A stretch of 64,000 nt of DNA, taken from positions 23,748,001 to 23,812,000 of the forward strand of contig CM119372.1 in NCBI GenBank assembly GCA_051294905.1, written 5' to 3'. This document shows, piece by piece, positions 8,050 through 54,138 of this stretch (position 1 is its first letter; every line of letters starts with the position of its first letter). The position numbers and the translations under genes are program-made. The notes under the pieces were generated by a model. It made no database searches. It was not told the DNA's origin and saw only the letters and a list, made by a program, of their open reading frames with translations. The DNA comes from Botryllus schlosseri. Lineage: Eukaryota.

Positions 8050-11000
8050 AATCGATGTGTGTTATTGAATCTATGTTGCAAGATTTGACTTCACACGAAC
8101 AAGAAAAACCATCATTAGCATAAATACATAGTTGGCATTTGAATATGCACGTAAATGTTCCGCACATTTTAACGTGTGCAAGTGCACCCAAAAGTCAGTG
8201 CATGGTGTATCATTAAAAATACGTTCATACTACAATTCGATCAGAGATCAATCAAATCGTTAATTTCGGCGGTAGATCCGTCAAAAACGAGTAATAGGCC
8301 TTTTGCAGGACTTCGATCACGTGACTAGGTCGCATAGCAACCACAAATTGGTTAGCAAGCTACTTTCTCGCGCACCTGCTTCAGTGCTAAATATCGCATA
8401 TTGTACTGTTGATTTCTGGTTGTAAACGTTTCGGAAATTTGTTGTAGAAGTCATCAGAGATTCACCTATGCTAGATGTCAATCATGTACAATTGCATAGC
8501 CTCAGTTTACAGTTACCAGTCAAAATAGAGAACATCGAAACGAATTGATAAGATGCAATATTACCAATTTACAAATTGATATGGTACAATTCGAGCCTGA
8601 ACCAATAGTCGAGGACTATATAAACTATATTCGAATTCAATTTCAATAAAACGAGAGGTTTGGTAAAGGTAAGAACAAAGAACAGAAATAGACATTTTGC
8701 TATTATATTACTTTACTATACTAGTTTACGACAACGCAAGCTGTAAGCTCCGCTCACTTTGTTTTCGGTCAATTTATTTGTGACACAACAATGGAGGCTC
8801 AGTAAAACGCACGATAATTGAATGATTGATGAGCGTCTCTCACCGCTTACACCAGCGTTTCGCGAACACTCCGACCATATGCAAGATGCAGTGATTTTTA
8901 TCGACACCGATTACTTGATGACTTGAAATTGACTCGTGAATTTTTCTCCAAGTCACGAGTCAATCCACATTTCTGATACGCCGAGTCAATTCAAGTCAAG
9001 TCATTTTAGCAGAGTGACTCGAGTCAAGTCAAGTCATACGAAAAAGGGTACTCGAGTCATCCCAACACTGAATTAGAGCAGTGTAGCCCAAGCCCGGTTT
9101 TGGACATACTCCTGGTAAGTAGCCTATTGATCATGGCATTGTCAAAGTCAAATTTAATCAGCGTTAGATTTACCTTCAAATGTTGTAACAGAAATAACAA
9201 CATATATGTATATATAATTAATATGTAACAGTAACAGAAATGTCTAATCGCTGAACACTCCATCGGTGTTACAGCTGTGGAGCGTATCACTGCGTTACTC
9301 GCCTTCTTTAATTCGCGATATTATAACATAAATAGAGAGACCCAGGATGTAACTAACTATAAATCTAAGGAGGCAACAGAATGACAATGATTGCCATGCA
9401 CCGGTCTCCTTAGATAGCAAAATCCGCTACGCTACGCAACGCCCACTGCGACCTTTTGATATCTTACTATTTCTGATAACAGTTCGGTCCATGGCTTTAC
9501 CAACCCACCGCTTTCCAAGTCATCAGTCATTCTCTGATCTTAACGTTTGACCCGACTCCACTCGAGTCATTTTATCACCCAGTCAGTCCGTCCGAGTTCG
9601 AGTGATTCTACGAATGATTGCGCATAAGTCAAAATCACAATTTTCAGTCACGCACCACCAAAGGGTCATGTTTCATCATCATGAACTGGTAATGTGACAT
9701 ATCAGCAAATCTTCCACCGCATGGTAGCTTTTGAAAGTGTTGTGATATTGAAGTGATGAGTAGTATAAGGTTTTTGGAGCAGTTTATGGGTGAATTTCAA
9801 GTTCTCATATCAAAAAAAGATATGTGACAGTTTAATATTGTCGAATACTTGAAAATTCAAAATGTCAACGCGGTCCGCACAAAATGTTCTCGCGGGCCGC
9901 GTGTTTGAGACCCCTGCTCTACGATCTGTGCAAAGTTTCAAATACCAACCTTCAACACAACGACAGTGAAATTACGACATATTCTTTCATCACAGCAAAT
10001 TTCCACTCGAGACAAGTCAAGTCACTTCAATATTTCGCAAATCCAGTAACTACTCGAGTCAAGTCCCAACATGTCCCATTTCATGTCAATTTTAAATTAT
10101 CAACTATTTTCACGTCTGTGTCGTTTTACATATTGTGAGGATACAGATGTAGCCTATACAGTATACATGCATATTTACTAGACCTCATTAAACTAGTCAC
10201 ACTTGGTTCCATGCATTTTCTAAACAGTACCATTCGGAGTAAAATTCAATGTAATCACCGTCTACCGACCAAATGTGAGAAGGCAGTGCCGAAACCATAT
10301 GGGCAGAGGATAAATATTGTCTGAGCGTGTAAGAGTAATTTGTTACCTGTGAAGAGAAATTTGTTTCCCGTAGATTTCATCGAGATTTGATCAATCGGGG
10401 TTTCAACGTTTCTACGGTGAGAAAAAGTATCGAAGCAATAATTCTCGATTATGGTAAAATTCTTAATTACAAGGCGTATGTATAATTTCAGTGCACCTGA
10501 ATCGCCTATCATTGCTCGACACGAATCAATGCAATGATTACTCAATTCAGATTAAGTGTTCCCACCCGAGATTCGTGACGAAACACCAGATAGTCGTTAC
10601 GCTATAGATCAGAGGTCTCAAACTCAAATGTGCTCGCGGGCCAATTTCCTAGCTTTTGATGACGCCTCGGGCCGCGGCATCAATAATAGGGCTATTCAAT
10701 GTATAATTTCCAAGTAGGCCTCATTTGACGGGACCTTGCAGACAGGCACTCCACAAACATCGTGTAAATGTCATTTACTATTGTATTATTCACGCTTGAC
10801 TCGGAAAAAATCACATTTTCAAATATTTGAATAAACTTGTTTTTGTGACGGGGATAATTTTTTTAATTAATGAGTTACGCACATCGGGATGCATAATGAC
10901 ATCGTGAAACCGTCGGTTTATGATATTGCAGCTAGAGGACCTTTGACGTGCCACAATTTTATGTATAATATTTTAAAATCTACTGAAGACTGATCTGCTA

Positions 11001-20239: not shown

Positions 20240-22491
20240 CTTATTGTGTTAAAAAAGCTATCAATATTGGGAAATCCCGAAACGAAAAATTTGTCTTTGA
20301 GGGTATAATTACTCAGAGACTAAGAAATAGCCTACTGAGATGCTTTCTGAAAACTCAACATCCTTCTAGGAAAAGAGGTGTACGCGATTTCGTTCAATAT
20401 ATCCTAGGTCCTAGGACATCAATTTTGTAATCCAACCATGACTTTGCTGCAACAAAGTGATCGTGTTTGCTGTAAGAAACTCGGGATTTCGTACTCGGCC
20501 TGTGGAAATATACCAGATATGGCTATACTGTACGGCATGTACGACAATATTTACATCTGTCTACTAAACGTTTTCATGTGCTCGTTCTTCCATCCCGATC
20601 AAACTTTCTCTGTCATCTCGATCACCGTAAAAGACGTCACCATACACGACAAATCGTCAATCCAATACAATGGGAGAGGGGAGCACATTCCAAATTTTAA
20701 TAAACAATGATTCTCTTTATCTTTATCGCATGAATAATGCAACTGATAGGCGGCATCTAAACGACCGACCGCTGATTCCATCCTCGACGTTGAAGTGCAT
20801 GAAAGCGTTAGAAATCACGGGATTACGATCTGAATTATTGACCTCGTCTATACCGACACTTTGCCTTCATTTACATCGCTTGACCTGTTAATGTTATATT
20901 TTGTCCTTTTGCTTTTCATTTATTGTACACGTGCATGCCACTTATTTACATGCTCTAAGCGCAGGTCTGCTTTGACACCATTCTATTTCTATAATATCGA
21001 ATTCCTGCGGTGTTTTGAGATGGTACAAATAATAATAAAGAGAACCAGAACCAAAATTCTATAAATACAGCAAGAATTGACATTAATTTTTCAACTTCTT
21101 TATGATTTTCATGATTGTGCCACCATCCGCGCCGTGTCTCGCTCGTATTTCGCTTTGTATACAGGGTCGTACTCGCACATATTTCAAATATTGTCAATGA
21201 TCGTCTGCAGACCGTTCAGACTTTCATTTGGGGGCCTTGGAGTCGACTTTTATCAAAATACGACAACCAAGCCTGTGCCTACAGAAGGAGTGTGTGTACC
21301 TTAGATGGTCTAAGAATAGTACATTGAGCTATCTCCGCCCCGATTATTTCATGCCGGTGACGTCATATTTTGTGATACGATTGTTGACATACAATGATCT
21401 TTCCAAGTCTCTGCTAGTTGCTGACGATTACCCCTGATGCGTGTCAGCCGAAAATATTCGGGCTCATTTCAATATGAACAGTGAACATACTATTCAAAAT
21501 ATGAGTTATATGCACCAACAATCAACGTTATTCAGTGTTGGGATGTTTCGAGTCAGCTTTTTCTTATGACTTAACTTGACTTTACTCGGTATTTCAGAAC
21601 TGTGGATTGACTCGTGCCGTTCAACCGACAACGATTTCTTGGGATCCAACGATTCCATATCGTGTATGTCGACTATATACCGGGTGCTGATCGTCCGTAG
21701 GCTCATACTGCATATTCTTTTCGAAAGTATTTACACAATTATGGCATAATTATGCAACGTGAAATGGCATAATTTTAGACACTGTTTCAAGCATGTTTTA
21801 AACAAAGTGTTTCAAAACACTATTTGCTCTAAATTTGTTTTCATACGATATTTGTTTTAAATGCAAAGCACACTCTTTTCACTCAGGGTGTAGTTGCATG
21901 TTGTTAAACACACCAGTTTGAAGCAGGTTTTAAACAGTTTTCTTTACAAAACCGTGTAGGTATGTTACAGCCTAATTATTTTCGAACTACCTTTTGGCGC
22001 GATCTATACCTATATAATCTTTTCGAATCTCTTCCTTGGTGTATTAAGTTGGTCATCATGCAGATGCAACTTATAATCCAATTCGATAATTTGTCCCGTA
22101 TAACTCAAACCAACCGAACGCACCTATTTGCGATATCGGAATTTGAAATTAGCACATTATGATGCGTCTGCGATCACTGAGAAATCATCCTTATCATGCA
22201 TTTTGTGTATAGATAATGTTTGATTTAGCAAATCTGGTCACAACCGAGGATTACTTGTGTTTTGGATAATAATTGAAAACAATGCGCAGAAAACCAAGCA
22301 ATTGCTACAAGTATACAAATTCATTGAATATGGATATAGTATGTCTTGCGCAACCTAACATCTCAACAACATACAAATAACACAAATATTGTAGCCAAAC
22401 GCAATGTTCGTATGGCGCATGAAATGAACTTCGCAATGAAATACAAAAAATGACCGCGCATCGCTATTTATAGAGCAGACAAAAAAATATA

Positions 22492-37700: not shown

Positions 37701-40700
37701 TAGGGAATACGGGGAAATTAATTGTATTGGGTTTTGTTCTAGTGCTTTGTGTGACTAGCAAATCAACTGGAAATGTCATGGAGATATCTGCTGACATTGA
37801 ATTTGGTACTGCACCCAGTTATTAATTTTAACACGAATGTATTGCAAACAAATCTCCGCTCCGCGACGATGTTGGCTACATATGATTTCATTAATGTAGT
37901 AGCCTAAACATCGTCGCGGAGCGCGACCAAAAATTTGGAGATTTGTCGATATGCACTGAAAACTCATTAATGAATAATTGATGTCCTACTACTGCACCAT
38001 CTACTGCGAAGCCATTTTTCTTCAGCACCCCGATATCGCTCCCTGAGCGTTTCCACCCCCTTATGAATACCAATCCTCCCTTGGGGCGCTGGAGACAAAG
38101 TTAAGAACCACTGAGTTACATTCGATAGTTACATGATCATTAATGAGATCTGCGTGACACAGCTCCTAAAGCACGGTAACTGAATACATTTTCGAATATT
38201 ATACCAATGGGTATTGTGTCAATATAAATATTTTGCGTTAGCCGAGAAGATACATCTTGCGATTTCATACGTAGCCACCTCCGACTAACTGTCGAAAGTA
38301 TGCGACCGCCCTTTTACCTCGACCAAATACACTTAGATATTTCAGCCACTTGAAGTAGTTTTCACGTGTCTTAGAAATTACTACTTATACGGTTAATTGA
38401 GTAGAAACTATATGGAGTAACTTGTGCTACTTGAGCATCAACGCCGATCAATTTTACAAATTCCTGTTCATTGTAAAATATTACGGCAAATCAGGAACCG
38501 CCAAAAATGTAAATCTATTTGTGTTTGGAACTGCCGTTTAATGTTGCAAAACTCAAACAAAAAGCCTCGATACCATTTAAAAACATCACTGGTGTGGTTT
38601 TTTGAAATTGTTGACCAGTGTAATTTTATGGGTCAAAAAGAGCTTCTGATTGAACGAAGATAGAAAATCACTGTATTCAAGTTCACCAAAAACTCACTCA
38701 TTCTATATTACAACAACCCAGGTTTCATGATAGATAATTTCAATAACAATATTTGACCTGTTAGTGTTGTATGCTAACCATGATATCAATAACGAAAGCT
38801 GAAATTTGATTAATTTATGAAATTGAGAAAAATTAATACGGAAAAAATCTGATATGATGGAGAAATCATTAGCACAGAATCAGATTCAGCAACTATAAAT
38901 TGGCCTAAATCAATCATTAAAATTTTTGACGCAAAATTTCCTTTGGAAATTAGTAGACCAATGTTAGCCCGGTCTCGGTCAACTTTTGCCCCCTTAAACG
39001 TATAAATACTCCTTAATAAAGTTATGTTTCACTTTTATGCTGTCCGATTGTTAGTTTGCTTTGCTAATAGTAATATTCCAATTCATGGTGTTGTATTCTG
39101 TTACGAAGGTATCGTATTTTAGCTTGTAATTGTATTATAATGTTGGGCAAAATAGTGTTTTACCCCTGGCACGTTTTTTGTCATAATATTTTTTCCCTAA
39201 GGTAAAAAAAAATGACAAAACTTTTCATCGAAAAGCTGATAAAATTATCTTTCCAACGGTATATAATACGTCTTTATAAAAAAATTTTCTAGGTTGACCA
39301 AAAATTCTACAGGACTGTAAGCAGGCGCCTGGTTCATACCTTGAAGTGGTGTGCTGGCTTATTACTAATGTCAGCCGATAGCTTTCCCGATTAGTGTGGT
39401 CTATTTAACCTGTAGCAGTTGTAGCGGTCTTCTAATATTTCACACTACATGCCACACATCTTCAACATGAAGACATGAGCTTTAGTTAACACGGTCACTT
39501 CTTTTATAATTTGACAATGTACGATAAAAGAAGGCTCTGGAGCTAGAGCAATTCCACATTAAAGTCTGCTTCAAAGCCGTTTTATAGTGTCGTACACAGA
39601 TCACGACATTCAGTTTAATATGGTGCACTGATATTAAGTTGGTAACGTTAGATGCGAAATGGGTGTATGGGGCGGAGCCCCCCAAAAGCTGCGATTGCAT
39701 TTAAAAATATGACTCTAGTTAAGTCTTGACCCTAGACATTACAACACTAGCGGTTGATTATGAAACATGTTTATACCAACCATCAACATTTTCGCTGCAA
39801 TATGAATATATATAAAGTCACTTCTTAGTACTTACTTGTTTTTGCATCCTCGTTCGTCTCCCAAGTTTTCACAAAATTGTGCACCGTCACACATTGAATT
39901 TAACCAAACGAGGCTGATGGCTGTTCCGTTGACGGGAACGCATCTATGAATTATGAACTATTGGTTTACTAATTTGTTCTTCGCACTAAACGTGAAGTAA
40001 AATGGATTTTAATTCATGCTTGAAAAACGAAATTGGTTCGATTCGTATTTGGATTAATAATATTTGTGACCTCTGGTTCGGACATGCGATTTAGACGTGA
40101 TACTATGAATGATGTTGCATTTGCGATTGGATTCAAATTTCAACTGGATATGGAATGGACTTTAATTTGGCTATTCTACCGTTTTGTTGGCGGGGGAGAT
40201 AGCGTAGTGGTAACGATAAGTGCCTACCAGGGTTGTGACCAAGTCACAAAGATCCGAGTCACAAGTCAATCTCTTGTTTATAGTTTTGACTCGAGTCAAG
40301 TCGAGTCATTTTCAATTCACCACCGAGTCAAGTCCGAGTCCAAGTCATCGAGCAGAGGGTCGAGTCCGAGTCATGGTATTATGACTCGAGTCCGAGTCCA
40401 AGTCATTGTGTTGTCTGCTCAGTTTTCAGTTAAAGTCTTGTTAGGCCCACTTTTCATAACTCTGTTTGGTGATATCGAATGGTTCGAATTTATAATATAC
40501 TAATTTTCCTCACTTTTGGCAGTTTCTGGTCGCATTTTCAAGTACCAGTACCGATAGACGAAATCTCACTAGGGTGCTTACTTTACTATTTTTCGAAATT
40601 ACTATGAAATGTCGGTCTTGGCCGCCTGAGTCTCGAGTCATATGACTTGGTTCGAGTCATGCGCAATGACTCGAGTCCAAGTCGATTCAATACACAGATT

Positions 40701-43700
40701 GACTCGAGTCGAGTCGAGTCATTTCCGTATTTTGAGAAAATGACTCGAGTCAAGTCGAGTCATCAGAAAATCGTGACTCGAGTCTGACTCGATTCGAGTC
40801 ATGACTCGAGTCATTACAACACTGGTGCCTACTAAGGGATGGACCGGGTTCGATTCCCATCGGAGGTTCATCTGGGCTCCTCTGGGCCCAGAAAAAAAGA
40901 CCCGAAGAAAGAAAGCACTCACAAGGAATGGAAAGAACTAGTTGAAAGGACCGCGGCTTCAAAAAAAAGATCAACATCGAAAAGAACTGTGACATCGGGC
41001 ACTCTAGGCCGAGGTGGATGTTAGAGTAAAGGATCACTACTGATACGTGTCGTTCGGCATCCTCCTATCTGTTCATTACATCGCATTGTGTCTTATCGCA
41101 TCGTACATTGTGTGTAACTTGTACAGATGAAAATTATAACCTAATGATTGTTGTTGTTGTTGTTGTTGTATGGAATGTTCTCACCAGGGATATGATATTG
41201 ACTAGTAAATAACCAATCGGATCTAAATTCTAAACTAGAGAGCGTTGGTGGTCGGTTTTGCCAACATGCACTTCTACTCAAGTGTGTATGTTCTTGACTA
41301 CTACAACAAGTTTGTTGGCAAAACTATATAGTTACAATTTTTCAATTCCGATTCCTACGCTTGTAATTGTATATTTGCGGTTGAGATCACCACAGGATGA
41401 TTTGACAACATTCGAGCTGACATACAATACCGTGTAGCTAAGGTTATTTCCAACTTTTGCATTTCTCAATTATTCCGGGATTGCTTGGAAGGATGTGAAT
41501 CTCACGTTTGCGCGTTGCAGAGTCCGAAATCGCATACGTTCTTGACATATCGACACACAATCATCATAATTACCCCGCAAATCCTTCCTGGTCCCGATAT
41601 GTTGTGAAGTAATCACAAAATTCAGCTTTCTGTTCGCATTCACACTCTTCACTCAAAAAGTTTAAACATTCGGCTATCCCGTCACAAGCTGTTGCTTCTG
41701 TAAAATAGAATTTACAGATGTGATTTATCTACAGGTTCCTCCTGTTGGCAGTCAAAGTGTTAAGGCGATGTACTGTACACCTACTGGTGCCATTGAAGCA
41801 AGTGAAGTTTTCTACCTTGGCCACTTCCGCAGAACTTGAATCTGGAAATCAATGCAAGGTATATCATTTCAAGTGAAAAAGTGACCTATAGGGTTTTTCG
41901 TTAATGGAAATGTTTCTTGGTTCGATGCGAGCCTCTTTATGTTGGGAGCTAAAATTGGTAGCTGTGATTTTTGAAGCAGCGCACCCACTGCTGCAGCTCG
42001 TTTTCTGATTCGACTATAACTTGGGTGACCAACTCGTGGCCTGCAAAAATGTTTTGAGTGGCCCGCGATATAATTTTCAAAATGTCTTGTCATCGAATAT
42101 TAACATAGAGTTAGATATATGGGCGAATTTATTCAACTTGAAATTTCTCTTCTCGCTTCTCGCGATTTAGTGTCTCTAGATCTCTTGCTATTAATATGGG
42201 TAGCCTACCCCGCGCTCCCGCAAATAAAATGAAAATCAAAACGCAGATGAAAATATCGCACTCGTGACGACATGGGATTTGGAATCCTGCGAGTCTCACC
42301 AAATGACTTTTTTGTTTTGTTTTTATTTTAATGTAGTCATGTATACGTCTAAACGATTCTAGTGCATCTTGAGTAACGATTAACAATCTGTACCGGATGT
42401 CAGGAATTGACAAAGGACTGCATAAAACAGCTTGTCATCAGATTTATTAGAACAATTGGACCCCGCTCGAAAAATTCCGCTGAAGCTTGATCCAGAAGAG
42501 TCAAAGGCGATGAACTTTTCCACATGCGTATGTTGAGAGAATTACTGCGTTACGAATCAATTCTAATGGCTCGCGCGTTACCGTTTTATAAATAAGACCT
42601 ACCATCGCTTTTGCAGTCTGTCTCATCTTCACTATTTTGGCAGTTCGTTCTGTTAAAAAGAATTGTGCGCACGTGCATAAGTTAGACGATTAGTCAATGT
42701 GCAAAATACGTTTATTACCCCATCATAAAAATAATTATTATTATATTAATGTTCTTTGTTCTATAGTATTTCTACATTTGAAGGTATTGCGTACGAAAAA
42801 TAGAGTCATGTTAAGACATAAATGCCCAGACATGATTATTTTTGACATTTTTCAAATTATATTTTTGGAAGTTTTGACATCGCCGTGAATTCAAAAAAGT
42901 ATACCTGATTTAACCTAGGCTTACCATACGTCCTCTTTTAAGAGGATATGTCCTCTTTTTTGACTTTTTTGAAAGTGTCCTCGGAGGACGCCCTCTTGTC
43001 CTCTTTTTTGAGATTTTGTCCTCTTTTTTGAAAATTTAGGTCAGTTTTAGATCAAATTGCGAGTGATATGCCGCAAATTAGCACAGAAGTGACGCTCCGG
43101 CGTGTATTTCGGAGTGAAAAACGGTGAATTGAGCTCTGAGCGAAAAATGACCTTTTTTTAGTCATCCACCTGGCAATGTGTAGAGAAAAACAATAGTTTG
43201 AGCTCTGAGCGGAAAGATGACCTTTTTTTTCAGTCAACCGATCACAAAGTGAAAAAAATTCACCGGCTTCTGAGAATTTCTACTCCGGTTTTGCAAGTCT
43301 GAAATTCTGAAAGAGTGTCTTCTTTTTAGATTTCCAAAATATGGTAAGCCTAATTTAACCACGTAAAACGCATTAGTTTCATGTCAAACCAAAGTCACAA
43401 ATCGGGCAGTATCCACTTTGTTCATCGAACAACAAGTATAAAATCCGAATTAACAACGGTATCGGAGGGCTATTTCACCCGGACAATGGACTGCCTCTGC
43501 AATAGGCTATCTAATCCCAATAGTAGATTTGATATGCAAATGACCTGCATTCACACAGATCAGTGCTTTTCCAACCTGTGTGACGGTTCGCACTTGTGCG
43601 AATGAAAAAAATTGCAGTGCGAATGACGCAGGTGGTGCGAATAGTGCGAATCAAAATCGTGAATAATTGTTAATTTTTCTGACGTTGAATAATTCAAATG

Positions 43701-46700
43701 AACTTAACATGAAATTTAAGGTCAGTGTAACTTTTGTAGTGGCGACGTAATTGTAAAAACTTGTTTAAATTACGACGCACCACTATACTCGTAGCTCTCA
43801 AAAGCCGTAGTGAATTATTATTTTCGCACTATAATTACTACGTAACCAAAAGCCTGGTTGGGAAGCTGGTGTGGTGGCAGACATATCAGCCCGTCTGAGC
43901 CTGCGACAGGCTGAAAAAATGACGTCAAATTGACTTTCTGCCTTCTTTCACTAACCAATCATCATATTTTCATAATAACTGTTCGATAAGCGCGAGGCAC
44001 GAGGATAGTAGTAAATACCATCATTACAGACTCACATTTGCAAGTTACTGTAACAAAATTTTTTACCCCTTTAAGGGTTATTTAAGTATGAACCGCAAAT
44101 TGTATAATTTTGGGTCGACACGGTGCCAGAGCTATCTGTTAATCAGTGTTGGGATGACTCGAGTCAACTTTTCATATGACTTGACTTGACTCACGTCACT
44201 TTAGAAAAATGACTTGACTTGACTTGACTCGGAGCTTCAAAAATGTGCATTGACTCGTGACTAGGACAAAAATTTTCGAGTCAATTTCAAGTCATCTAGT
44301 AAACGGTGTCGCATATATCACTGTATTTTGTGTATGTTCGGACTGTTCGAGGTATGCCGGTGTTACTTGCGAGAGCAACCAGTCATTCATGATTCTACGT
44401 TACAGTGATCATCCATTGTTGGATCTAAATAAATTGACCGCAAACTAAAAAAGCACAGCCTACGTTGTCGAAGTAGTAGTAGTAGTAGTAGAAGATTGAT
44501 CTAATCAATGTGTTTCTGTTTCTTAGATGGCTCAATGCTTAGCGATGCGCGGTGCTCACATTTACCAACCCTCTTGTAGGATTTAAATCGAACAAATATA
44601 CTTCGGCGTTTATATTCTGGTGGATGTGTAAATGGATGTTGTAGGTTATTGTAACATATCAATTTGTTTCAACTTCTCGAAGCTTCGTAATAGGTCCTAC
44701 AGTTTGGACGATAATAACCAACTGTAGCATGTAGCCTAGCTGTACAGATACTCACGTACTTTATTAGCAGTTTTACGTGTGCGTGAGGGATACAACGTCT
44801 TTTTGCATGTATATTTAACTAGATATTTGTTATTTGATTCAAGATAAATGATGAATTAATCTGTCTTTCACACATCTACCAAAATGTAATGACTTTGAAT
44901 CATCATTCATACATCGAAAATTCAAATTGACTTGAATCGTGACTTGACTCGTGACTTGACTTGACTCGACTCGACTTGACTCGAGTCACCTCCAAAAAAC
45001 GAGTGACTTGACTTGACTCGAGTTACATTTGAAAATCGATTGACTTGACTTGACTCGAATCAAAATCTGCAATGACTAGAGATGACTCGTGACTCGAAGG
45101 TAGTGACTTGATCCCAACACTGCTATTAATATGTATGTAAAAAAAATCATGCGATCGTTTTCACATATCCAAGTGCACTGTGTTGGGTACTGTAGCCAAT
45201 AAGCGAGACACGCAGAAAATATTGCTTGGAGAATTCATGATAAGATTTGTCCGACTGGTTTTTCTGGAAAACATGGTCGAAGACCGTTGGGACAAACTAG
45301 TGTAGTAGGGGTGTGCAACGAGCGAGTTCAGGCATATGATACCCATTCATTTCAAGGCCAATCCCTTCTGCGTCGGGACACACGAAAACGTAAAGTTTTG
45401 GCCAAGAGAACGCTGATAAAATGCGCGGCCCAAAACATAAGCGGCGACAAAACCTTGGTATGATATTGACCGATGCTCGATGGCCAAACCTTTCGACATG
45501 CATATGGTCCATTGTCGGCACGGAATTGTCTCGTTCTTGCAATCTGAGTAGACAGTAGTACAACGGCGACACGCGGAGGAATTTAATTTGCCCTAATTTG
45601 AAATCGCGTCCGTCAGGCATGTTTTGTAGAGATGTGTTGGTTAGAATTGTGGTGTGCGCGTTCTGTATGTCATACATGTCCGTAAAATCGTAGCATACAG
45701 CTGTGATATTAAAAATGAACTCCTTTTCATGAGTGAGACTCGGGTCACGAGACGCCACAAAAACTCAGATTTTGGCGGTAGTCTAAAAGCTGCTTTACAG
45801 TTATTAAACTGTTATCAATTCTCATGTTAGATTGAGCTAATGAGCACAACACACAATGTCGTGAGGTTATTTGATCTTCTCATATTCTCTCGAGACGGAG
45901 AAGCGAGTGGCGCAGTGTGCTAAGCGACACCGCCACGACACCAATGAATCCTGGTTCGAGTCTCGGCCCTTCCATGCTTCTATGTGTCGGAGGTTGATCT
46001 GGGCTCCCCATCGCCGATCCCGCTGCTAACGCAGTGCATTGAAAAAAAGCCCAGAGACAGAGTGAGCCGAGCTCCGAAAACGGCAGCAGAGACCCGAAGT
46101 GAAAACAAGAATGAATGTATGAAAGTGTGGGAGTGCGCGAAGATGAAATAGAGCATAAAGACCGAAAGCAAAGCTACTGAACTGTACTAAATGCATTGTC
46201 GTGGCGCACAAGGCCTACACAGGCGATAAGCGCCACTGTTGTTGTGTGCACTTGCAGCTACCGAATACACATGGAGACACAAAAGGATTGGTCACTACAT
46301 TCATCTTGAATTATGCAAACATTTTAACATCACCACTTCGACAAAAAATTGGTACGATTACAGCCCAGCACCAGTGATAGAAAACTAACAAGTAAAAATT
46401 CTGTGGGATGTACCAGTAATAACTGACCGCGAAATCAGAAGCAACCGCCCGGATATAATCGTCAAACTAAAAAAGAAAAGAGAATGCTTATTCATTGAAC
46501 TGACTGTCGCAGCTGATCGCAACCTACTGCAAAAAGAATCAGAAAAACACTCCAAATACGCAGATCTCAAAATGGAATGTGAGAAAATGTGGCGATGCAA
46601 AATAAACATTGTACCGATAGTCATTGGCGCTACAAGGGTCGTGAGCAAAAAACTCATGAGACATATCCAACAAATTCCGGGTAACGTTCGATTCGACAGG

Positions 46701-49700
46701 ATCCAAAAGATCACATTATTGGGCACTGTGCACATTCTTCGGAAGGCCTTGAATGCACCACTGGACTGAAATTACACTTGTGAATCACAGCATAATTTCT
46801 GTAATTTCGATTCTTCATCTTCAATCATCTCTACCTCTGCTCTGCAACCCTTGCCAATTCTTCATCTGCTGCAATTCATTAATCTGACTTCTCCGTGTAT
46901 TGCATAGGAATAACAATTTGAATGTATTACTGAAATTTTAAAAATTTACTCCAATCTCGCCATTTTCCTTTGGGGGCAGGTTTCTCCCCGGATTATGTGT
47001 GTATCTACCAGATTTACTGTGAATAAAGAAGAAGAAGAAGAATACTCGCGAGACAGAAGCTGAAGCAACGTATCATAAGGTAGCGAGCTCTAATGAGCCT
47101 ATACTCTCCTTGATCGTTCTGCACGTTATGTTACAAGAAATAATGCAAAATCCTCAACACAAACATGTGGGTTTTTCGTCCTCTGGAAAAACTGTAGCCT
47201 CCGGGACCTTTGTGTCAGCTCTCAAAAACGATTTCTGCCAGCAAGCATCTATCACTCGCGAAAACTACGTTGTATTTTGGAGAGAAGTGCAAAACAGATT
47301 TTAAGATCTGGCCGTCCAAGCACCAGTAGACGTAGCCTACTTGTACAAAACCCTACTTGTTTCGCCAAGAAGGGCTTTAGTGAAATAGTTGAAATCAACA
47401 CGAGCAAAAAATGTTGCCTTTTTAATGAGACTCGTGATAGCTTAAGCTACATAGTAGCCAATTTGTTCCACATCTGAACAAAATGTTCTTAAATATCTTG
47501 ATCTTCATTTTGTATAACAATTTTCGGTTAGTTTGTGCGAATGAAGTTTATTTTACAAAAAAAAAGTACGAATAGAGCCCAAAAAGGTTGAAAAGCACTG
47601 ATACAGAGCATATAATACCACTTATGATAACAATTCGAAATGGATGCTGACACGTTTGGGTCACAACATTCACAACCTATACGCAATGGTTAGAAATCAT
47701 GAGCGACTTCCATATGTCATATAATATGATTGTATCCACACAGCAAGAAAAATCGAGGAAATGACTGAATGTATGTGTGTATGGTACACATTGCTGGGTG
47801 TTGCTTCCTGACGGCGGAGGCCTTTTGCACTGTGTTCATTGATAAAACTATATCCCTATTGTCCATCGCGACACAGTCTATCAGTGATTGAACCATGCAG
47901 ACATTTTTCAATAGCATGTTAAACTTAAAACTGAATGGAATTATACATACGGATTGATCTAAATGTAGCATGGCTCGCGCGTGGTGGCAACATGGCGTAT
48001 CAAAATGCACAGCGGTGAAAACAGTAAAATGCCTATAACACTGGTCGACATTTCTCAACTTATTTTTTTTTTAGATCGTTTAATTGAGTTCACCTAATTT
48101 ACAAAACACATCCTACAAGTTTCAACTTACTTTATTGTATTTGAGGTGTTATTATTTCAAACTAAACCCCCCAAAATAATCAGGATCCTTAGTATTTCCA
48201 AGAAATTTAGATGCAACTTTAATGAAAGAGAGTCATGTATTTTTTCCAAATCCGCCTTCCCAATAAGAAATAGTTTTTTTGTGATTTTTCTGATTTGAGA
48301 TCCTACAAATGCACCCTCTTTCGTGAATGTATTTAGAACATGCACTCACTCTCTTTGATCAGAGACAATAAAAACTTTTCTATGAGATCCAGTTTGATAA
48401 ATGGTGGAAATACAACATTAGATCTGTTGATAGGAGCAGGCACTGAAACATTTTAAAGCCTGCATGGTGTAAGATACTCCCTCATCGGCCACTTACGTTT
48501 ATTTCAATGATTTCTACTAGTTCCATTCAGAGATAAAACAAGGATACCTTGTAGTTCTAGAGTCTAGACAGTTGAACCAGTAGCATATTTAAGAGTAACG
48601 CGAAACAATAACTTCATATTGTTAATTTATTCGCTAAAAGCTTTTCGACTAACTCTCATCAGTAGCGAACGTTAGTGATGGGGTGAATCAAATTCGAAAT
48701 GTAAGAACTATTTTGTCTGTATGACGTAATAATAACAAAAACAAACAACTAGTAGACGGGCTAGATACGGTAGTAACGGTACAAAACAAACGTTAACGAG
48801 TACATATTCGGTTATAAATAACCGAAAACACAACACATAACATTAATGAAATATTCCAAGAGTGTAGAGGCGTTCCTTCTGGCGACAGAGAATCGGCTTT
48901 CGTAGCTTTATGATCGTAGATTCCAGGACCTTTAAATGAAACAGAGAACGGCCACGAGCAAGTATAGAAAATTGACTGTCATTGTAATGATCAGCACATT
49001 CTGGATGGGATAAGAGATGCTGTCCAATAGCCGAATTACAAGCAGTAACTTGATCATAATCACGCAGTGTGTCAACAGACTGCGATGAAGGAGTTGGAGA
49101 AACAATATTTATTCTAATTTGCCGTGGGACATGCTGGCGAATTCTTTGCTGCAAGCGCTGAGACGTGCGACCTACATACCGACTGTCACATCGGCACGTG
49201 TATTCATATATTATGTTGCTTTGATTTGTCGCAGGTAGCACATCCTTTTGCGTTGCAGGCATCAGAGATTTCGTCATGAAGATTATCTGAGGTTCTACTT
49301 GTGAAAAACAATGGCTCACTGACGATTTAATTTGTTTTTCAAACCTGTTGGACACTTTCCCAATCCAAGGAAGATGCAAATAAACAGGACATTTTCTAGG
49401 TCCAAACGGTTTAACTTTTCTGAAATCTTTGAGTTTACGATCTATGGTCATTTTAATGATATGATCAGGATAACCATTTGACTGAAAGATTGACCGAATG
49501 TTCTCCAATTCAGAATCAAGTTTGACTTTACTACAAATCATCAGAGCCCTGTGTACCAGAGTTCTTATCAAATTTACTTTACGTTTTACTGGACAGAAAG
49601 AATCCCACGAAATGTATTGCCCACTGAATGTAGGCTTACGGTAAACTGATGTAACAAAATTAGCACCCGTCTTTTCCACTACAACATCAAGGAATGCTAA

Positions 49701-52700
49701 TGAATTATTGACCTCTTTTTCCATGGTGAATTTCAGTGATGGGTGAAGACCATTCAATTTGCTCAGAAACAAATCACACTGGGATTCATTTTCAAATATG
49801 GCGAAGGTGTCATCAACATATCTTTGATACATTAATGGTCGATCAATATCTTCGAATAACCGTTTTTCGTAATACCCCACAAAAATGTTAGCCAGAATGG
49901 GACCAAGCGGCGATATGTTGATGACACCTTCGCCATATTTGAAAATGAATCCCAGTGTGATTTGTTTCTGAGCAAATTGAATGGTCTTCACCCATCACTG
50001 AAATTCACCATGGAAAAAGAGGTCAATAATTCATTAGCATTCCTTGATGTTGTAGTGGAAAAGACGGGTGCTAATTTTGTTACATCAGTTTACCGTAAGC
50101 CTACATTCAGTGGGCAATACATTTCGTGGGATTCTTTCTGTCCAGTAAAACGTAAAGTAAATTTGATAAGAACTCTGGTACACAGGGCTCTGATGATTTG
50201 TAGTAAAGTCAAACTTGATTCTGAATTGGAGAACATTCGGTCAATCTTTCAGTCAAATGGTTATCCTGATCATATCATTAAAATGACCATAGATCGTAAA
50301 CTCAAAGATTTCAGAAAAGTTAAACCGTTTGGACCTAGAAAATGTCCTGTTTATTTGCATCTTCCTTGGATTGGGAAAGTGTCCAACAGGTTTGAAAAAC
50401 AAATTAAATCGTCAGTGAGCCATTGTTTTTCACAAGTAGAACCTCAGATAATCTTCATGACGAAATCTCTGATGCCTGCAACGCAAAAGGATGTGCTACC
50501 TGCGACAAATCAAAGCAACATAATATATGAATACACGTGCCGATGTGACAGTCGGTATGTAGGTCGCACGTCTCAGCGCTTGCAGCAAAGAATTCGCCAG
50601 CATGTCCCACGGCAAATTAGAATAAATATTGTTTCTCCAACTCCTTCATCGCAGTCTGTTGACACACTGCGTGATTATGATCAAGTTACTGCTTGTAATT
50701 CGGCTATTGGACAGCATCTCTTATCCCATCCAGAATGTGCTGATCATTACAATGACAGTCAATTTTCTATACTTGCTCGTGGCCGTTCTCTGTTTCATTT
50801 AAAGGTCCTGGAATCTACGATCATAAAGCTACGAAAGCCGATTCTCTGTCGCCAGAAGGAACGCCTCTACACTCTTGGAATATTTCATTAATGTTATGTG
50901 TTGTGTTTTCGGTTATTTATAACCGAATATGTACTCGTTAACGTTTGTTTTGTACCGTTACTACCGTATCTAGCCCGTCTACTAGTTGTTTGTTTTTGTT
51001 ATTATTACGTCATACAGACAAAATAGTTCTTACATTTCGAATTTGATTCACCCCATCACTAACGTTCGCTACTGATGAGAGTTAGTCGAAAAGCTTTTAG
51101 CGAATAAATTAACAATATGAAGTTATTGTTTCGCGTTATTCTGAAGTTCTGTACCACAAATCACTTGTATATTTAAGAGTTCAAAATCAACGGAAACTTC
51201 ACACGCTTGAGTATTTTGAGTACTATATTCCAAATTTGAAATCAAAAGTTTTATATTCTCGTAAGACCCTTGATGCCAGTTGTACCAGCTACAGCGATAG
51301 AAGCACATCGATTCGTATTGTGCGACGAAACAGCTTTTAGGCTTGATCAATAAATAAAGAGCGCAATTCACTGTAGACTAATACAATAGAGGCAAAGAAT
51401 CGTGTGTATTTACTATCAGGTGCCAGGGCCAAGTATAAGTTTGACTTTTAATCTGGAACCTACAATAAGAGAAGATTAATTTGGCAAATTCACGTTTTTG
51501 ACAAAGTTATTTAGTTCAGCTTGATTCAACTTTATATAGCTGCTGCTGATTATCATCATCACCACACTCATGCTGGGAACATTCTTCAGACAAAGACTCT
51601 TCACCGAGAGAATCTTCTTCAACTGTTGGTAAAACGTTTGAAGGCAATGGAATTGTGACATCTGTCCCATGAGGAATCGGTCGTATTGCGCAAGTCAAAT
51701 TGGATATTGAATTTTATGCTGATTTTTGACATTGAATAAAAAAACAATAGCAAAAGAAACAATTTTTCCGTGTCCATGTGGCTCTCTCCAAACCATTGAC
51801 ACACCAAATGCTAAATATTTTTGTTTTCGAATGCTTCACAGCCTGATTTCAAATATTACTCCAAGTCGTTTCAACGCCTTCTAATTTTTTTCATTGTATC
51901 GCAGCCTTGTGATGTTTTGAAAGGAAGAAAATATTAATAAATTGATACTAATATCAAAAACTAGGCCTAGAATACTTACTTTTTTACATACTTATAAAAA
52001 GTTACTTTTACTTCTACTTGAGTATAAATTGACGCCGTTACTTCTACTTCTACTTGAGTACCTATGGTAAGCACTTTGACCACCTCTGATGACGTCACAA
52101 TGGTTATAGCTATAACCCAACAGCAAGGAATACGTCACGGAACAGGCTGTTTTGAGCACTAAAATGCAAAATTTTAAATCACAGATTATAAAAATATTGA
52201 CGTGGTAGAAAAAAACGACTTCATACTCGTAATCATCCTTTTGGTCAAAAAAATAAAAAATGATGTCGATCAGTGTAATCATTGAGCTAAATTCATATAT
52301 TTCGGCTCTCATTCGGGGATTCCAAAATATTCTGATTACCAATTAAAACCCTGTTGTTGCGGGAAAGGAGCACATATATCGCTGTATATCATCTACTACC
52401 TAATCGCTGGATTTATCTATCCACAGATTCACCGTAAATTCATCTTTCATTTCTCGACTTTTTAGCCTCGACCCTAGGATTTTCATTTGCCCTTCATAGA
52501 CCCCTCGGAAGGTAGTCCGTTGCCACGGTTCACGGACCTCAATTTAGGGATTTCGGTTTATACACTCAATTTTTCGTTTCATACAAACTCCTTTCTATTC
52601 TTGTTGACATTTTTATCAAAAACTTCCCTACCTGTATTTTCAAAAATCATGTTCCCGAAATGCCAAAAATATTCATGCCTGCATATGCCCATGACTTTTG

Positions 52701-53126
52701 AAGAAATGTACCCACATGTTGTCACATATCATCGCTGCATCGAATGTTATATACTCCTCGTCATCGGACAAGCAATGCGGTCCATCTTTGGTACCATTCC
52801 ATTTTTGATCTAAAGATGGCGGCAGCATTGAAAACAACCCTCATGGGACATTGATTTTGTTCTTACTCAGAGTTAATTTTTGACAAATATCATGTCGATT
52901 TTTCAAGGAACAGAGACATTCATCGGTGAGATCAGGGCAGTTGAACGATCCATCACACAGGTTTGACACAGTGATGACTGTCTCCGGATTTGACAAACAT
53001 TGAAAGCAGTTTTCGTCCATAAAACCTGGATATGACGGCGATTACAATTTACAAATTGCATATAGATCTGTAACGTCTGACCAAAATGTTCTGCTAATCG
53101 CATCAATGCTTCGAAGGGCGCCAGAC
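22492..53126 (-). CDS. Spliced LDLa-repeat class A GPCR (GRL101/RXFP/LGR-like, no LRR ectodomain); gene-level span of confidently linked exons
   Basis: GT-AG exons with compatible phases: 53082-53126, 52867-53025, 41785-41841, 41574-41697, 39836-39943, 34635-34698, 34487-34573, 29965-30094, 29690-29847, 29450-29631, 29123-29248, 28524-28631, 28246-28464, 27520-27680, 22492-22706 (TGA). LDLa cores CDG..C.D.xDE and 7TM motifs LAVSDFLVG, FYRL, GYYSSHTVCLP, DFLCWMP, PINSAMNPLLY. Confidence 0.9.
24420..25619. mobile_element. Inverted-repeat DNA element
   Basis: CGCCAGGTGCGGCAGGCTGCAAGGGG near 24454 and its reverse complement near 25558; ends approximate. Confidence 0.6.
26861..27377. mobile_element. 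hAT-type MITE (TAGGGCTGGGCA TIR)
   Basis: TIRs and TCGAG subterminal motifs; another end of this family at 60310-60387. Confidence 0.75.
27520..27680 (-). CDS. GPCR exon: ICL3 and TM6
   Basis: ttttag / GTAAAC; LATEKKTRLNRSFSGEDKISKQNAMMQRKLTWILASDFLCWMPICIMGLLKLC. Confidence 0.9.
28246..28464 (-). CDS. GPCR exon: ECL2 end and TM5
   Basis: tgcag / GTGAGT; NTDWEHLKSLIAELNPNITVLYEFGYYSSHTVCLPTFF...YSTVILVINFIAFAFMLVVYVLLYR. Confidence 0.92.
28524..28631 (-). CDS. GPCR exon: long ECL2
   Basis: ttcag / GTATGT; phase 2-2, open frame FSENDFFKMINNDEISYTINWLNLMHNDSTRGKYYG; 59-nt intron to next exon. Confidence 0.8.
29123..29248 (-). CDS. GPCR exon: ICL2 and TM4
   Basis: gacag / GTAAGG; PFATAKIGRTIIAILATWAISILIAVFPVIPRYEDIFKSSV. 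Confidence 0.9.
29450..29631 (-). CDS. GPCR exon: TM2 end, ECL1, TM3
   Basis: tctag / GTGGGC; IYALAICIKTSEVDGRYCKVDRQWRSSTACSLLGVILLIGSEQSVFTMVLIAFYRLHSIAR (LGR-type W-x-S-x-x-C). Confidence 0.92.
29690..29847 (-). CDS. GPCR exon: TM1, ICL1, TM2
   Basis: tgtag / GTAAGT; IAAIIGCTTVVILTCH...FNILIMSLAVSDFLVG. Confidence 0.92.
29965..30094 (-). CDS. Exon joining last LDLa module directly to TM1
   Basis: aatag / GTGAGT; VCDGIQDCQSGSDECQFGCIDSAFSNEEKLITSRTILVVVWII. Confidence 0.92.
30407..31282 (+). mobile_element. Internally deleted hAT element retaining the transposase C-terminus
   Basis: TIR TAGGG(T/C)GA, TSD ATGATGAG; ORF 30725-30976 TTAAVERSFS..KLLSKDR (hAT dimerisation-like). Confidence 0.8.
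31999..32326 (-). mobile_element. tRNA-derived SINE, 5'-truncated at the B box
   Basis: Colinear with 7661-8000; GTTCGAATCC; (CAAA)n tail. Confidence 0.75.
32421..33578. mobile_element. Non-autonomous hAT element
   Basis: TIR CAGTG(G/A)TTCCCAAC, TSD CTGTAAGC, GGGGGCGA subterminal repeats. Confidence 0.85.
34487..34698 (-). CDS. Two LDLa exons (34635-34698, 34487-34573) split by a 61-nt intron
   Basis: FYCTNHPLPNVPMENRCDRRG + NCPDGADERNCSLFNCGDDGILEYIHENA; GTACGT...tttag intron. Confidence 0.88.
35035..39317. mobile_element. Long-TIR DNA transposon with 3-bp TSD (possibly Academ-like), with nested MITEs
   Basis: About 170-bp imperfect TIRs starting (T/C)AGTCCTGTAGAATTT, TSD TAA; relic ADTTIV...SDDTGVLCLL at about 36230-36330. 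Confidence 0.6.
35595..36008. mobile_element. hAT-type MITE, same family as 533-981 (opposite orientation)
   Basis: TIRs and 8-bp TSD CTTTGGAC. Confidence 0.85.
39836..39943 (-). CDS. LDLa exon
   Basis: catag / GTAAGT; CVPVNGTAISLVWLNSMCDGAQFCENLGDERGCK. Confidence 0.88.
40190..41169 (+). mobile_element. tRNA-derived SINE split by a MITE
   Basis: A box at 40200-40210, B box GGTTCGATTCC at 40847-40857, (TTG)n tail at 41148-41168. Confidence 0.7.
40228..40824. mobile_element. hAT-type MITE with GACTCGAGTC arrays
   Basis: TIR CAG(G/T)GTTGT, TSD GTGCCTAC. Confidence 0.85.
41574..41841 (-). CDS. Two exons (41785-41841, 41574-41697) forming a divergent LDLa module
   Basis: SSSAEVAKVENFTCFNGT-K-ATACDGIAECLNFLSEECECEQKAEFCDYFTTYRDQEGFAG; canonical splice sites, phases match. 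Confidence 0.82.
42916..43352. mobile_element. hAT-type MITE (TAGG(C/G)TTACCATA TIR)
   Basis: TSD ATTTAACC; relatives at 18716 and about 54700-55255. Confidence 0.85.
43390..43469 (-). CDS. Candidate ectodomain exon
   Basis: aatag / GTTTGA; PPIPLLIRILYLLFDEQSGYCPICDF; ends phase 1 matching the 41841 exon, but its upstream phase-2 partner is unresolved. Confidence 0.3.
44144..45122. mobile_element. hAT-type element with (GACTT/GACTC)n arrays
   Basis: TIR CAGTGTTGGGAT, TSD CTGTTAAT/CTATTAAT; related ends near 9070 and 21533. Confidence 0.85.
45490..45543 (-). CDS. Candidate Cys-rich symmetric (phase 1-1) exon
   Basis: ctcag / GTTTGG; CKNETIPCRQWTICMSK; neighbouring candidate exons in 45200-45700 not resolved. 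Confidence 0.4.
45897..46239 (+). mobile_element. tRNA-derived SINE
   Basis: A box TGGCGCAGTG, B box GGTTCGAGTC, body homologous to the copy at 17135-17492. Confidence 0.8.
46240..47042 (+). mobile_element. 3' fragment of R4/Dong-type non-LTR retrotransposon (restriction-like endonuclease)
   Basis: EYTWRH...WYDYSP...LWDVPVITDREIRSNRPDIIV...FIELTV...KHSKYADL...VPIVIGA...HILRKAL* with one internal stop; AATAAA and (GAA)n tail at 47023-47042. Confidence 0.85.
48630..48669 (-). ncRNA. Minimal type I hammerhead ribozyme, mirror copy
   Basis: Exact reverse complement of 51065-51104. Confidence 0.8.
48843..49913 (-). CDS. PLE reverse transcriptase C-terminal part + GIY-YIG endonuclease (5'-truncated)
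   Basis: SPLGPILANIFV, YQRYVDD, FLDV, YRKPT; GIY-YIG-type NIIYEYTCRCDSRYVGRTSQRLQQRIRQH with CCHH residues (SAIGQHLLSH). Confidence 0.93.
   Translation of the reverse strand, partial: SPLGPILANIFVGYYEKRLFEDIDRPLMYQRYVDDTFAIFENESQCDLFLSKLNGLHPSLKFTMEKEVNNSLAFLDVVVEKTGANFVTSVYRKPTFSGQYISWDSFCPVKRKVNLIRTLVHRALMICSKVKLDSELENIRSIFQSNGYPDHIIKMTIDRKLKDFRKVKPFGPRKCPVYLHLPWIGKVSNRFEKQIKSSVSHCFSQVEPQIIFMTKSLMPATQKDVLPATNQSNIIYEYTCRCDSRYVGRTSQRLQQRIRQHVPRQIRINIVSPTPSSQSVDTLRDYDQVTACNSAIGQHLLSHPECADHYNDSQFSILARGRSLFHLKVLESTIIKLRKPILCRQKERLYTLGIFH
49912..50891 (+). CDS. PLE RT C-terminus + GIY-YIG endonuclease, second (shorter) truncated copy
   Basis: Begins at YVDD; the ORF-track translation is identical to the minus copy over 309 aa. 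Confidence 0.92.
51065..51104 (+). ncRNA. Minimal type I hammerhead ribozyme in PLE 3' UTR/pLTR
   Basis: TTCGCTA-CTGATGA-GAgttagTC-GAAA-AGCT-TT-TAGCGAA: 7-bp stem I, conserved CUGAUGA/GAAA core, palindromic stem/loop III, overlapping AATAAA. Confidence 0.8.
52867..53126 (-). CDS. Microexon 53082-53126 plus LDLa exon 52867-53025
   Basis: LAPFEALMRLAEHF-G-FMDENCFQCLSNPETVITVSNLCDGSFNCPDLTDECLCSLKNRHDICQKLTL; 56-nt intron; GTAAGA donor. Confidence 0.85.
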
Positions 53127-53219
53127 CTATATAGTTATTGCAAACATCCTTGCCGAAGAATAGTGACAAAATATTAATCTAATATTCGAAATCTTTGATC
53201 AAATGCTGATGAACTGTAG

Positions 53220-54138
53220 CAGTGGTCGGGAACCTTTTTTGTCCGAAGAGCCATATTGGCCCTATTTTTTCCATCTCAACTCCCAAAGAGCCATACATGC
53301 CAGTCAACTGTTACGTCACAATTGAAAATTCATGACGTCATGGTAGCACTAATTCGAGCTCACTGCATGGGATTCCTCGTGTGCACCATATTTTCTCAGT
53401 AAAATCTGGTATTTTTTGTTCGGAAATAAAGGTCGAAACGAGAGGTATAGAACAGACGGGCCAAGCTTCCCTCTTGATAACGCAATTCATATGTATAGCT
53501 TAGAATTTTTTCACAACTGATATTAATGGAATGTGACTGTCACACTGATTACGAAAATCTAAATACTTATCGACTTCTCAAAGTATTCGGCGGCAACATA
53601 ACGTTGCGCTACACGTATACATTTTATCGCCGGTACTACACAGAGCTATACTTACCGATCAAGAACGTGGATAGCCATGGCGTTGTTTGTGATTGGAGTT
53701 TGTAATTGTCACATTAACAACACTTCATTTCGCGACGCAGATCAGGAAGACAATGCGTATTTGAATACTGCGTTTTGAAATGTGCGGCGCCGTATCTGCT
53801 ATGCTCTTTGATTAATCAACGTATCACGCAATTCAAGATTTCGAGTCGGGTACATAAAATTCGCGAGTTATATTGGCCGCCGGCGTCACAGTAACTTAAA
53901 TTTGATGATCTTGAAAAGAGGGGGTCCGAGCCCAAAACCTGAAGACGACATTGTCTTTACCTCTCAAATACATGTTTGTACTGCCACGAGATTAATTATT
54001 TTGGCCGCGATTAAAATTTACCAACGACTCGTTGCCATATTGATCAATTCAATAAAAAAATAAATAATTGGCAAAGAGCCATAACTTATACCCAAAATAG
54101 CCATATATGGCTCGCGAGCCATAGGTTCACGACCACTG
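53220..54138. mobile_element. Non-autonomous hAT element
   Basis: TIR CAGTGGTCG(G/T)GAACC, TSD AACTGTAG/AACTATAG. Confidence 0.8.

Follow-up and report, generated by a model that had tools for sequence, protein, structure and literature searches.

This study focused on how a long inverted repeat came to lie within a decayed transposon of Botryllus schlosseri, and on whether a single integration can account for it. The window, by which is meant the whole stretch that was analysed, comprised 64,000 nucleotides (nt) of contig CM119372.1 (assembly GCA_051294905.1, forward-strand positions 23,748,001 to 23,812,000), and all coordinates refer to it. The repeat is formed by two 5'-truncated copies of a Penelope-like element (PLE), placed head to head with their 3' ends pointing outward. 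The repeat was confirmed as real in the sequence, and we regard the head-to-head unit as recent and as the outcome of a single insertion event. The explanation favoured here, to which we give a probability of about 0.6, is that both nicks at the target site primed complementary DNA (cDNA), each at one of two start sites used by the reverse transcriptase (RT), and that the two cDNAs were then joined at the trinucleotide GAT.

Anatomy and target site of the inserted unit

Self-comparison of the 64-kb window returned two arms of 1227 bp each (48596-49822 and 49912-51138) with 0 mismatches, the first mismatch outward from the arms appearing at 48595/51139. Base 48596 doubles as the final base of the left target site duplication (TSD), so that 1226 bp of arm lie outside the TSD. 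These lengths, together with an 89-bp spacer between the arms, are the same as those of the original prediction, and the divergence between the arms, which had been set beforehand as a possible refutation, is below 0.24% at 95% confidence, given 0 differences. The description of arms, spacer and TSD therefore stood, but a 30-nt extension of the right arm had been overlooked. The unit is asymmetric: these 30 nt (51139-51168) separate the right arm from its TSD copy, and nothing equivalent is present on the left. Read along the top strand, the insert runs from a cDNA-sense arm through a cDNA-sense spacer and an RNA-sense arm to an RNA-sense tail, and both of its outer ends are 3' ends of the element, situated at the two natural termini of the family (Table 1).

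In the whole window the flanking 12-mer, ATATTTAAGAGT, has just two occurrences, which start at 48585 and 51169, in agreement with the 12-bp TSD that had been proposed around the whole unit. Base composition gives such a repeat a chance of 2.3e-7 for each position pair, which rises to about 1e-4 if a slack of 10 nt is allowed in either direction at each end. The target site is AT-rich and lies within a transposase relic. Relatives of this host were sought with one decayed frame of the right flank, and 2 proteins were returned among 194 candidates; the intact protein P0138 (571 aa) could be aligned collinearly to both flanks. When the insertion and one TSD copy were removed, the host aligned to P0138 across the junction without a gap. 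Keeping zero TSD copies left a gap of 4 residues, and keeping the tail introduced 14 extra residues. The claim that removal of the insertion restores the host transposase reading was borne out in this way, and the accompanying claims of PLE identity, a single event, and a transposase host were likewise supported.

It is highly improbable that the arms arose by independent insertions, with a later copy landing at the 5' end of an earlier one and the two subsequently equalised by gene conversion. Copies of the family are numerous, and gene conversion is possible between long inverted repeats, but a single TSD surrounds the whole unit, no host bases are present at its centre, and the two arms share the minority letters described below.

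Four of 24 sequencing runs (X1, X2, X5, and the RNA run X23) were compared with the spacer, the right arm, and the right flank; the results rest on the contig records listed, and contigs drop rare variants. X1 and X2 derive from one sample and are not independent, and since their right flank carries no substitutions, this may be the source sample. X5 is from another sample and showed 18 differences over 648 flank bases. Among the records listed, family contigs departed into varied flanks at 51138 (18 in X1, 15 in X2) and at 51168 (34 in X1), while those of X5 piled up instead at 51161, continuing in variant, element-like letters. Contigs in X2 and X5 matched the window as far as 49914 and then entered upstream element sequence, so that the microhomology shared by the two copies is GAT, and not the GA at 49912-49913 that was first proposed. 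The ordinary continuity of the element from 49823 to 49912 was present as a deep joint; its depth was about 95-fold (X2) and 176-fold (X5) that of a flank contig, values that give an order of magnitude only, since depth does not equal copy number.

Many stops and frameshifts had already disrupted the host, which, according to the run contigs, is itself multi-copy, so that no gene function was lost by the insertion. We take it to be of the Chapaev3 type from the resemblance of its motifs, a label that was returned by no tool. The atlas matches of P0138 consisted only of 'hypothetical protein' clusters and a weak lead to the RNase H domain of RAG1. A phmmer search with a 69-residue host fragment gave two unrelated, repetitive proteins and was rejected. 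No convincing pair of terminal inverted repeats (TIRs) was found between 47000-48584 and 51181-53500 when CAC...GTG TIRs and a TWA TSD were sought, and the ends of the host element were not located. At about 51820-51950, all four runs showed very high depth, with loose ends at 51888 and 51920-51941, indicating that a short repeat of very high copy number lies where the host transposase match has its upstream end.

Table 1. Features of the inserted unit and of its host (window coordinates).
Feature	Position	Strand	Remarks
Host decayed transposase, continuation	48176..48596	-	P0138 residues 311-467
Left TSD copy, 12 bp	48585..48596	+	Last base also matches the element 3' end (1-nt overlap)
Left 5'-truncated PLE copy	48597..49914	-	Longer at its 5' end; 3' end tail-less (terminus 1, first base of ORF codon 8)
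Hammerhead-like motif, mirror copy	48630..48669	-	Left arm
Left open reading frame (ORF) remnant	48843..49913	-	Parent residues 495-850 and stop: late RT core with YVDD, thumb, C-terminal GIY-YIG
Spacer, 89 nt	49823..49911	-	Single-copy portion of the left copy, not foreign DNA; in-frame 5' continuation
GAT microhomology, 3 nt	49912..49914		Common to the 5' ends of both copies
Right 5'-truncated PLE copy	49912..51168	+	Lacks the spacer; 3' end bears the tail (terminus 2)
Right open ORF remnant	49914..50891	+	YVDD through stop
Non-coding pseudo-long terminal repeat (pLTR) segment, 225 nt	50892..51116	+	From the stop codon to the next ORF start
Putative minimal type I hammerhead-like motif	51065..51104	+	Core 51072-51078 and 51088-51091; palindromic helix III 51091-51096
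Element ORF start	51117..51138	+	Codons 1-7 and first base of codon 8; in both arms
PLE tail, 30 nt	51139..51168	+	Remainder of codon 8 to first base of codon 18; right end only
Right TSD copy, 12 bp	51169..51180	+	Exact repeat
Host decayed Chapaev-type (CMC) transposase, right part	51169..51862	-	P0138 residues 62-320; stops and frameshifts

The parent family

The parent element was sought among longer proteins, and 807 relatives were recovered among 1975 candidates. The left copy retains 356 open codons, in which matches to RT and GIY-YIG domains are weak, but two full-length ORFs of 850 aa, P0001 and P0121, were identical to the window at 355 of these 356 residues, from residue 495 to the end. 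In P0001, the RVT_1 match lies above the Pfam cut-off (E 1.6e-9) and that to GIY-YIG (residues 728-756) below it (E 0.007). Upstream of the RT core, a DKG motif (PDKG, residues 278-281) was invariant or nearly so in 20 relatives, and the endonuclease residues C734, C736, H755, and H793 (CCHH) were invariant among the aligned relatives, as were R751 and E825. A conserved catalytic N was not identified in the endonuclease alignment of P0001 with its relatives, and inspection by eye of P0001 and 19 aligned relatives showed the CX2-5CxxC zinc finger to be absent from the linker between RT and endonuclease.

PMC8557442 gives a DKG motif ahead of the RT core as a feature of endonuclease-bearing (EN+) PLEs, and uses the CCHH residues and the linker as clade criteria. 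By these, the family is an EN+ PLE of Penelope/Poseidon architecture, an assignment (as against Neptune, Nematis, Naiad, and Hydra) that was made by architecture. It is unnamed in the sources found. The beginning of the ORF is repeated at the 3' end of the element, 51117-51167 encoding the first 17 residues of P0001. Since the element sequence stops at the first base of codon 8 on the left and reaches the first base of codon 18 on the right, the 30 extra bases represent a PLE tail. This corresponds to the pLTR organisation of EN+ PLEs, in which an ORF start is found at the 3' end and a tail of 30-40 bp is optional; the two termini here are 51138 and 51168.

It had also been proposed that intact ORFs in the unit imply a currently active family. 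This does not hold for the window ORFs, which lack their 5' parts (of the 850 residues, the left one retains 495-850), so that neither can encode a working protein. Judged by the two full-length 850-aa ORFs, the many near-identical copies, and the identical arms, the family itself is young, intact, and many-copy.

Each arm carries a putative minimal type I hammerhead-like motif. It matched Rfam weakly (E 4.3) and its minimum free energy folds were not significant, while its core and palindrome recur in a related PLE family, and a minimal hammerhead with such a core and palindrome has been described for PLEs (PMC4209133). The RNA run X23, of which about 6 in 100 was read, contributed 768 reads on both strands, 95% of them continuing into sequence unlike that of the stretch; their starts and ends did not pile up, and the run was uninformative on this locus or on hammerhead cleavage.

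Several other repeats were observed in the window. An older relic of a different PLE at 21213-21480 retains 29 codons with 65% identity to the endonuclease end, together with a hammerhead-like core at 21421. A frame of 126 codons at 46389-46769 (+) gave only a weak Pfam match (L_protein_N), and presumably resembles the restriction-like endonuclease domain of R2/R4-type non-LTR retrotransposons. Two older, diverged palindromes, at 5280-5944 and 40652-40809 (80% and 70% self-identity), are possibly similar to miniature inverted-repeat transposable elements. Clusters of short GACTT/GACTC-type repeats at 44155-45097, spaced at about 37 nt and related to others at 8714-9071 and 40225-40813, are probably the subterminal repeats of a DNA transposon.

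Origin of the inverted arrangement

The sequence of steps that we infer from the observed anatomy and ends is as follows. The GIY-YIG endonuclease would have nicked both strands of the AT-rich site 12 nt apart, as the length of the TSD suggests. The 3' end of the top strand would have primed cDNA at the upstream start (codon 8, tail-less), from which 1318 nt would have been copied, and the 3' end of the bottom strand would have primed a second cDNA of at least 1257 nt at the downstream start (codon 18, tailed), using RNA of the same donor. The 3' ends of the two cDNAs would then have met at GAT/ATC and each been copied through, giving two head-to-head copies whose 3' ends face outward, together with a single tail and a single TSD. 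The spacer lies in cDNA polarity only on the top strand, in the cDNA that starts tail-less, so that the tail needs a second cDNA. The Poseidon protein of the anole, a predicted dimer, has been reported to cut and extend both target strands in vitro, with its RT starting at two sites that delimit the tail (PMC11167929). Of the two mechanisms originally put forward, priming from both target ends fits the sequence directly, whereas a plain fold-back cannot give the 30-nt tail of the right arm.

Copies of a related family also bear on this question. From the best 80 of 215 matches in a metagenome scan, 79 loci were retained, and 44 of these belong to one related family. Subtraction of 11 loci without upstream sequence and 1 reference left 32, which were grouped by eye into 23 distinct 5' ends; with long copies on short contigs, the sample is biased. 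An inverted copy adjoins 12 of the 23, at 12 different places, and inversion is common in this PLE lineage. The outer end of the inverted arm, visible in nine of these 12 units, lies near codons 6-9 or 18-19 and is tail-less in five cases and tailed in four. Both ends are visible in a single related-family unit, present in two versions of one locus (L010 and L028), which combines a short, tail-less inverted arm with a long, tailed arm and, in L028, a 12-bp TSD candidate. The mixture of tail-less and tailed inverted arms, and the one tail and TSD candidate of this locus, support priming from both target ends.

Two possible regularities were considered and abandoned. A fixed assignment of the tail to one of the arms was rejected, as units of either layout were observed. 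The idea that the two 5' ends always lie close together, prompted by the present unit and by joints in X5 that are 35-172 nt apart, was dropped; in the related copies they are often separated by hundreds to about 1600 nt. These X5 joints are three further opposite-strand joints within the element (50436/50608, 50973/51018, and 51100/51135), each at about single-copy depth; 51100/51135 was seen in X2 as well. Further inverted insertions of the family probably account for them, although the table of joints does not separate head-to-head from tail-to-tail arrangements. More complex junctions, with extra internal fragments or short duplications between the inverted and the direct copy, were seen in the related family in L072 (2036-2281), L076 (1650-2001), and L026 (2109-2231), and suggest several template jumps.

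A different route would be self-priming, in which GAT at the 3' end of the long cDNA pairs with ATC 89 nt back and the cDNA then copies itself; the tail would come from a jump to a short cDNA that the other nick had primed, or from a tailed hairpin intermediate of which the endonuclease removed 30 nt at one end. The short spacer and the identical arms with shared minority letters agree with such a fold-back, and so would the layout of L010/L028, which, with its tail on the long arm, is compatible with the plain form. Self-priming on an antisense template has been proposed for head-to-head PLE junctions (PMC3846280), and resolution by the endonuclease has been suggested for the tail (PMC8557442). 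In the present unit, however, the spacer belongs to the left, tail-less cDNA alone, and an extra step is required for the tail. In addition, folding of the cDNA-end DNA revealed no hairpin that would set the junction, and the left cDNA has 26 ATC sites. The wide separation of 5' ends among the relatives, as well as initiation in vitro at both tail boundaries on both strands (PMC11167929), argue against self-priming, which we consider unlikely.

The source of the two arms can be traced to some extent by minority letters that both share at 50024, 50629, and 50792. The window letters at these positions account for at most 0.2, 0.4, and 0.5% of depth in X5, for 0, 0.5, and 8.6% in X2, and for 29, 5, and 21% in X1. 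Their presence in both arms points to one donor, although homogenisation during assembly, or gene conversion, would look alike. A ready-made palindromic donor locus, transcribed through and retrotransposed entire, would account for the same letters and for the identity of the arms, and active forms flanked by inverted repeats are known in Drosophila virilis (PMC2377424). This is nevertheless very improbable, since the 5' join would have to hit terminus 1 exactly and bring no donor flank with it, the inverted junctions of the related family lie at 12 places, and the three further joints in X5 are at about single-copy depth.

Several points weigh against priming from both target ends. Among the records listed, none spans any of the three junctions and no empty allele was seen, and X2 lacks a contig with the window letter at 50024 (0 of depth 1220), an ambiguous result as rare variants drop out. 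A microhomology of 3 nt occurs in about 6% of random joins of the element, and is weak evidence for either account. A fold-back finished by a short second cDNA yields an identical sequence, and the one-tail pattern is drawn from two of two complete units. The lack of a junction-spanning record and of the X2 contig, together with the perfection of so long a palindrome, might also suggest an assembly or library artefact, either a read that folded back or arms made alike during assembly, and such structures are known to trouble assemblies (PMC8557442). Yet a fold-back chimera would mirror the flank as well, and would not create a TSD, a one-sided tail of true ORF sequence, ends at natural termini, or a collinear host protein; this explanation is barely credible for the unit. 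Homogenisation of the arms may have occurred, and would affect only the arguments about age and donor.

Priming from both target ends also lends itself to a broader and more tentative proposal, for which the odds are slightly less than even: the inverted copy and the one-sided tail may be two signs of one reaction, double-ended target-primed reverse transcription being the normal route of PLE integration. The PLE protein, as a predicted dimer, would prime both target ends, one for each RT start site. Double-ended priming was not found as a stated cause of PLE inversions in a literature search that ran without older key papers and supplements, and it may be in print.

Comparison with known systems

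The host shares with Chapaev elements (CMC, Chapaev3 group; PMC4079192) the motifs C(2)C, LH, and H(4)H listed for their transposases, which are visible by eye in P0138, and P0138 is collinear with both flanks. It differs in that the window copy is decayed, too much so for all of the motifs to be seen, and that its termini were not found.

The inserted unit is an example of an already described PLE insertion type, contributed by an unnamed, young family and lying in a dead transposon. The original prediction had implied an unusual layout, but published accounts present a TSD-flanked unit with an inverted, 5'-truncated copy and a tail on one side as typical for PLEs (PMC3846280, PMC8557442); Pen2a_Av of Adineta vaga, for example, has a 31-bp tail and TSDs of 9-10 bp (PMC3846280), and forms flanked by inverted repeats are described as the most frequent in Penelope of D. 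virilis (PMC2377424). Canonical EN+ PLE units, as presented in these sources, share with the present one outward-facing 3' ends in a head-to-head arrangement, early ORF codons that form a tail of about 30 nt on one side only, and a short TSD around the unit in an AT-rich target (9-10 bp there, 12 bp here). A direct partial tandem is lacking here, and both copies are truncated near RT motifs 4-5, at nearly equal lengths, which gives the unit the look of a 2.6-kb palindrome. Structurally, then, it is a minor addition, and its value is mechanistic. The tail on the arm that lacks the spacer separates priming from both ends from plain fold-back, and a fresh, complete unit offers a clean test case for PLE inversion, as plain self-priming cannot make such units. 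A perfect inverted repeat of 1.2 kb could also be unstable, or could yield double-stranded RNA directed against the family.

Poseidon of Anolis carolinensis (PAc; PMC11167929) shares with the family an RT with a C-terminal GIY-YIG domain, a pLTR hammerhead, and two 3' termini within the ORF start that bound the tail. The main PAc site is reported at 111-118, whereas the termini here are at ORF nt 22 and 52. Inverted insertions are not discussed in the results of that paper; the word 'inverted' is counted once in it, in connection with a blocking dT. In the present family, unlike PAc, the hammerhead lies entirely upstream of the ATG.

For LINE-1 (L1) twin priming, adjacent, non-overlapping pieces of the RNA are the general rule. 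As in the mechanism favoured here, both 3' ends of the target prime cDNA, and two cDNAs are joined head to head within one TSD (Ostertag and Kazazian 2001, cited in 10.1101/2024.12.14.628481). The second L1 primer, however, is internal, and in the example cited in 10.1101/2024.12.14.628481 adjacent RNA pieces without overlap are produced, whereas in the B. schlosseri unit both starts fall at the 3' end of the element, no more than 30 nt apart, and the product is an inverted duplication.

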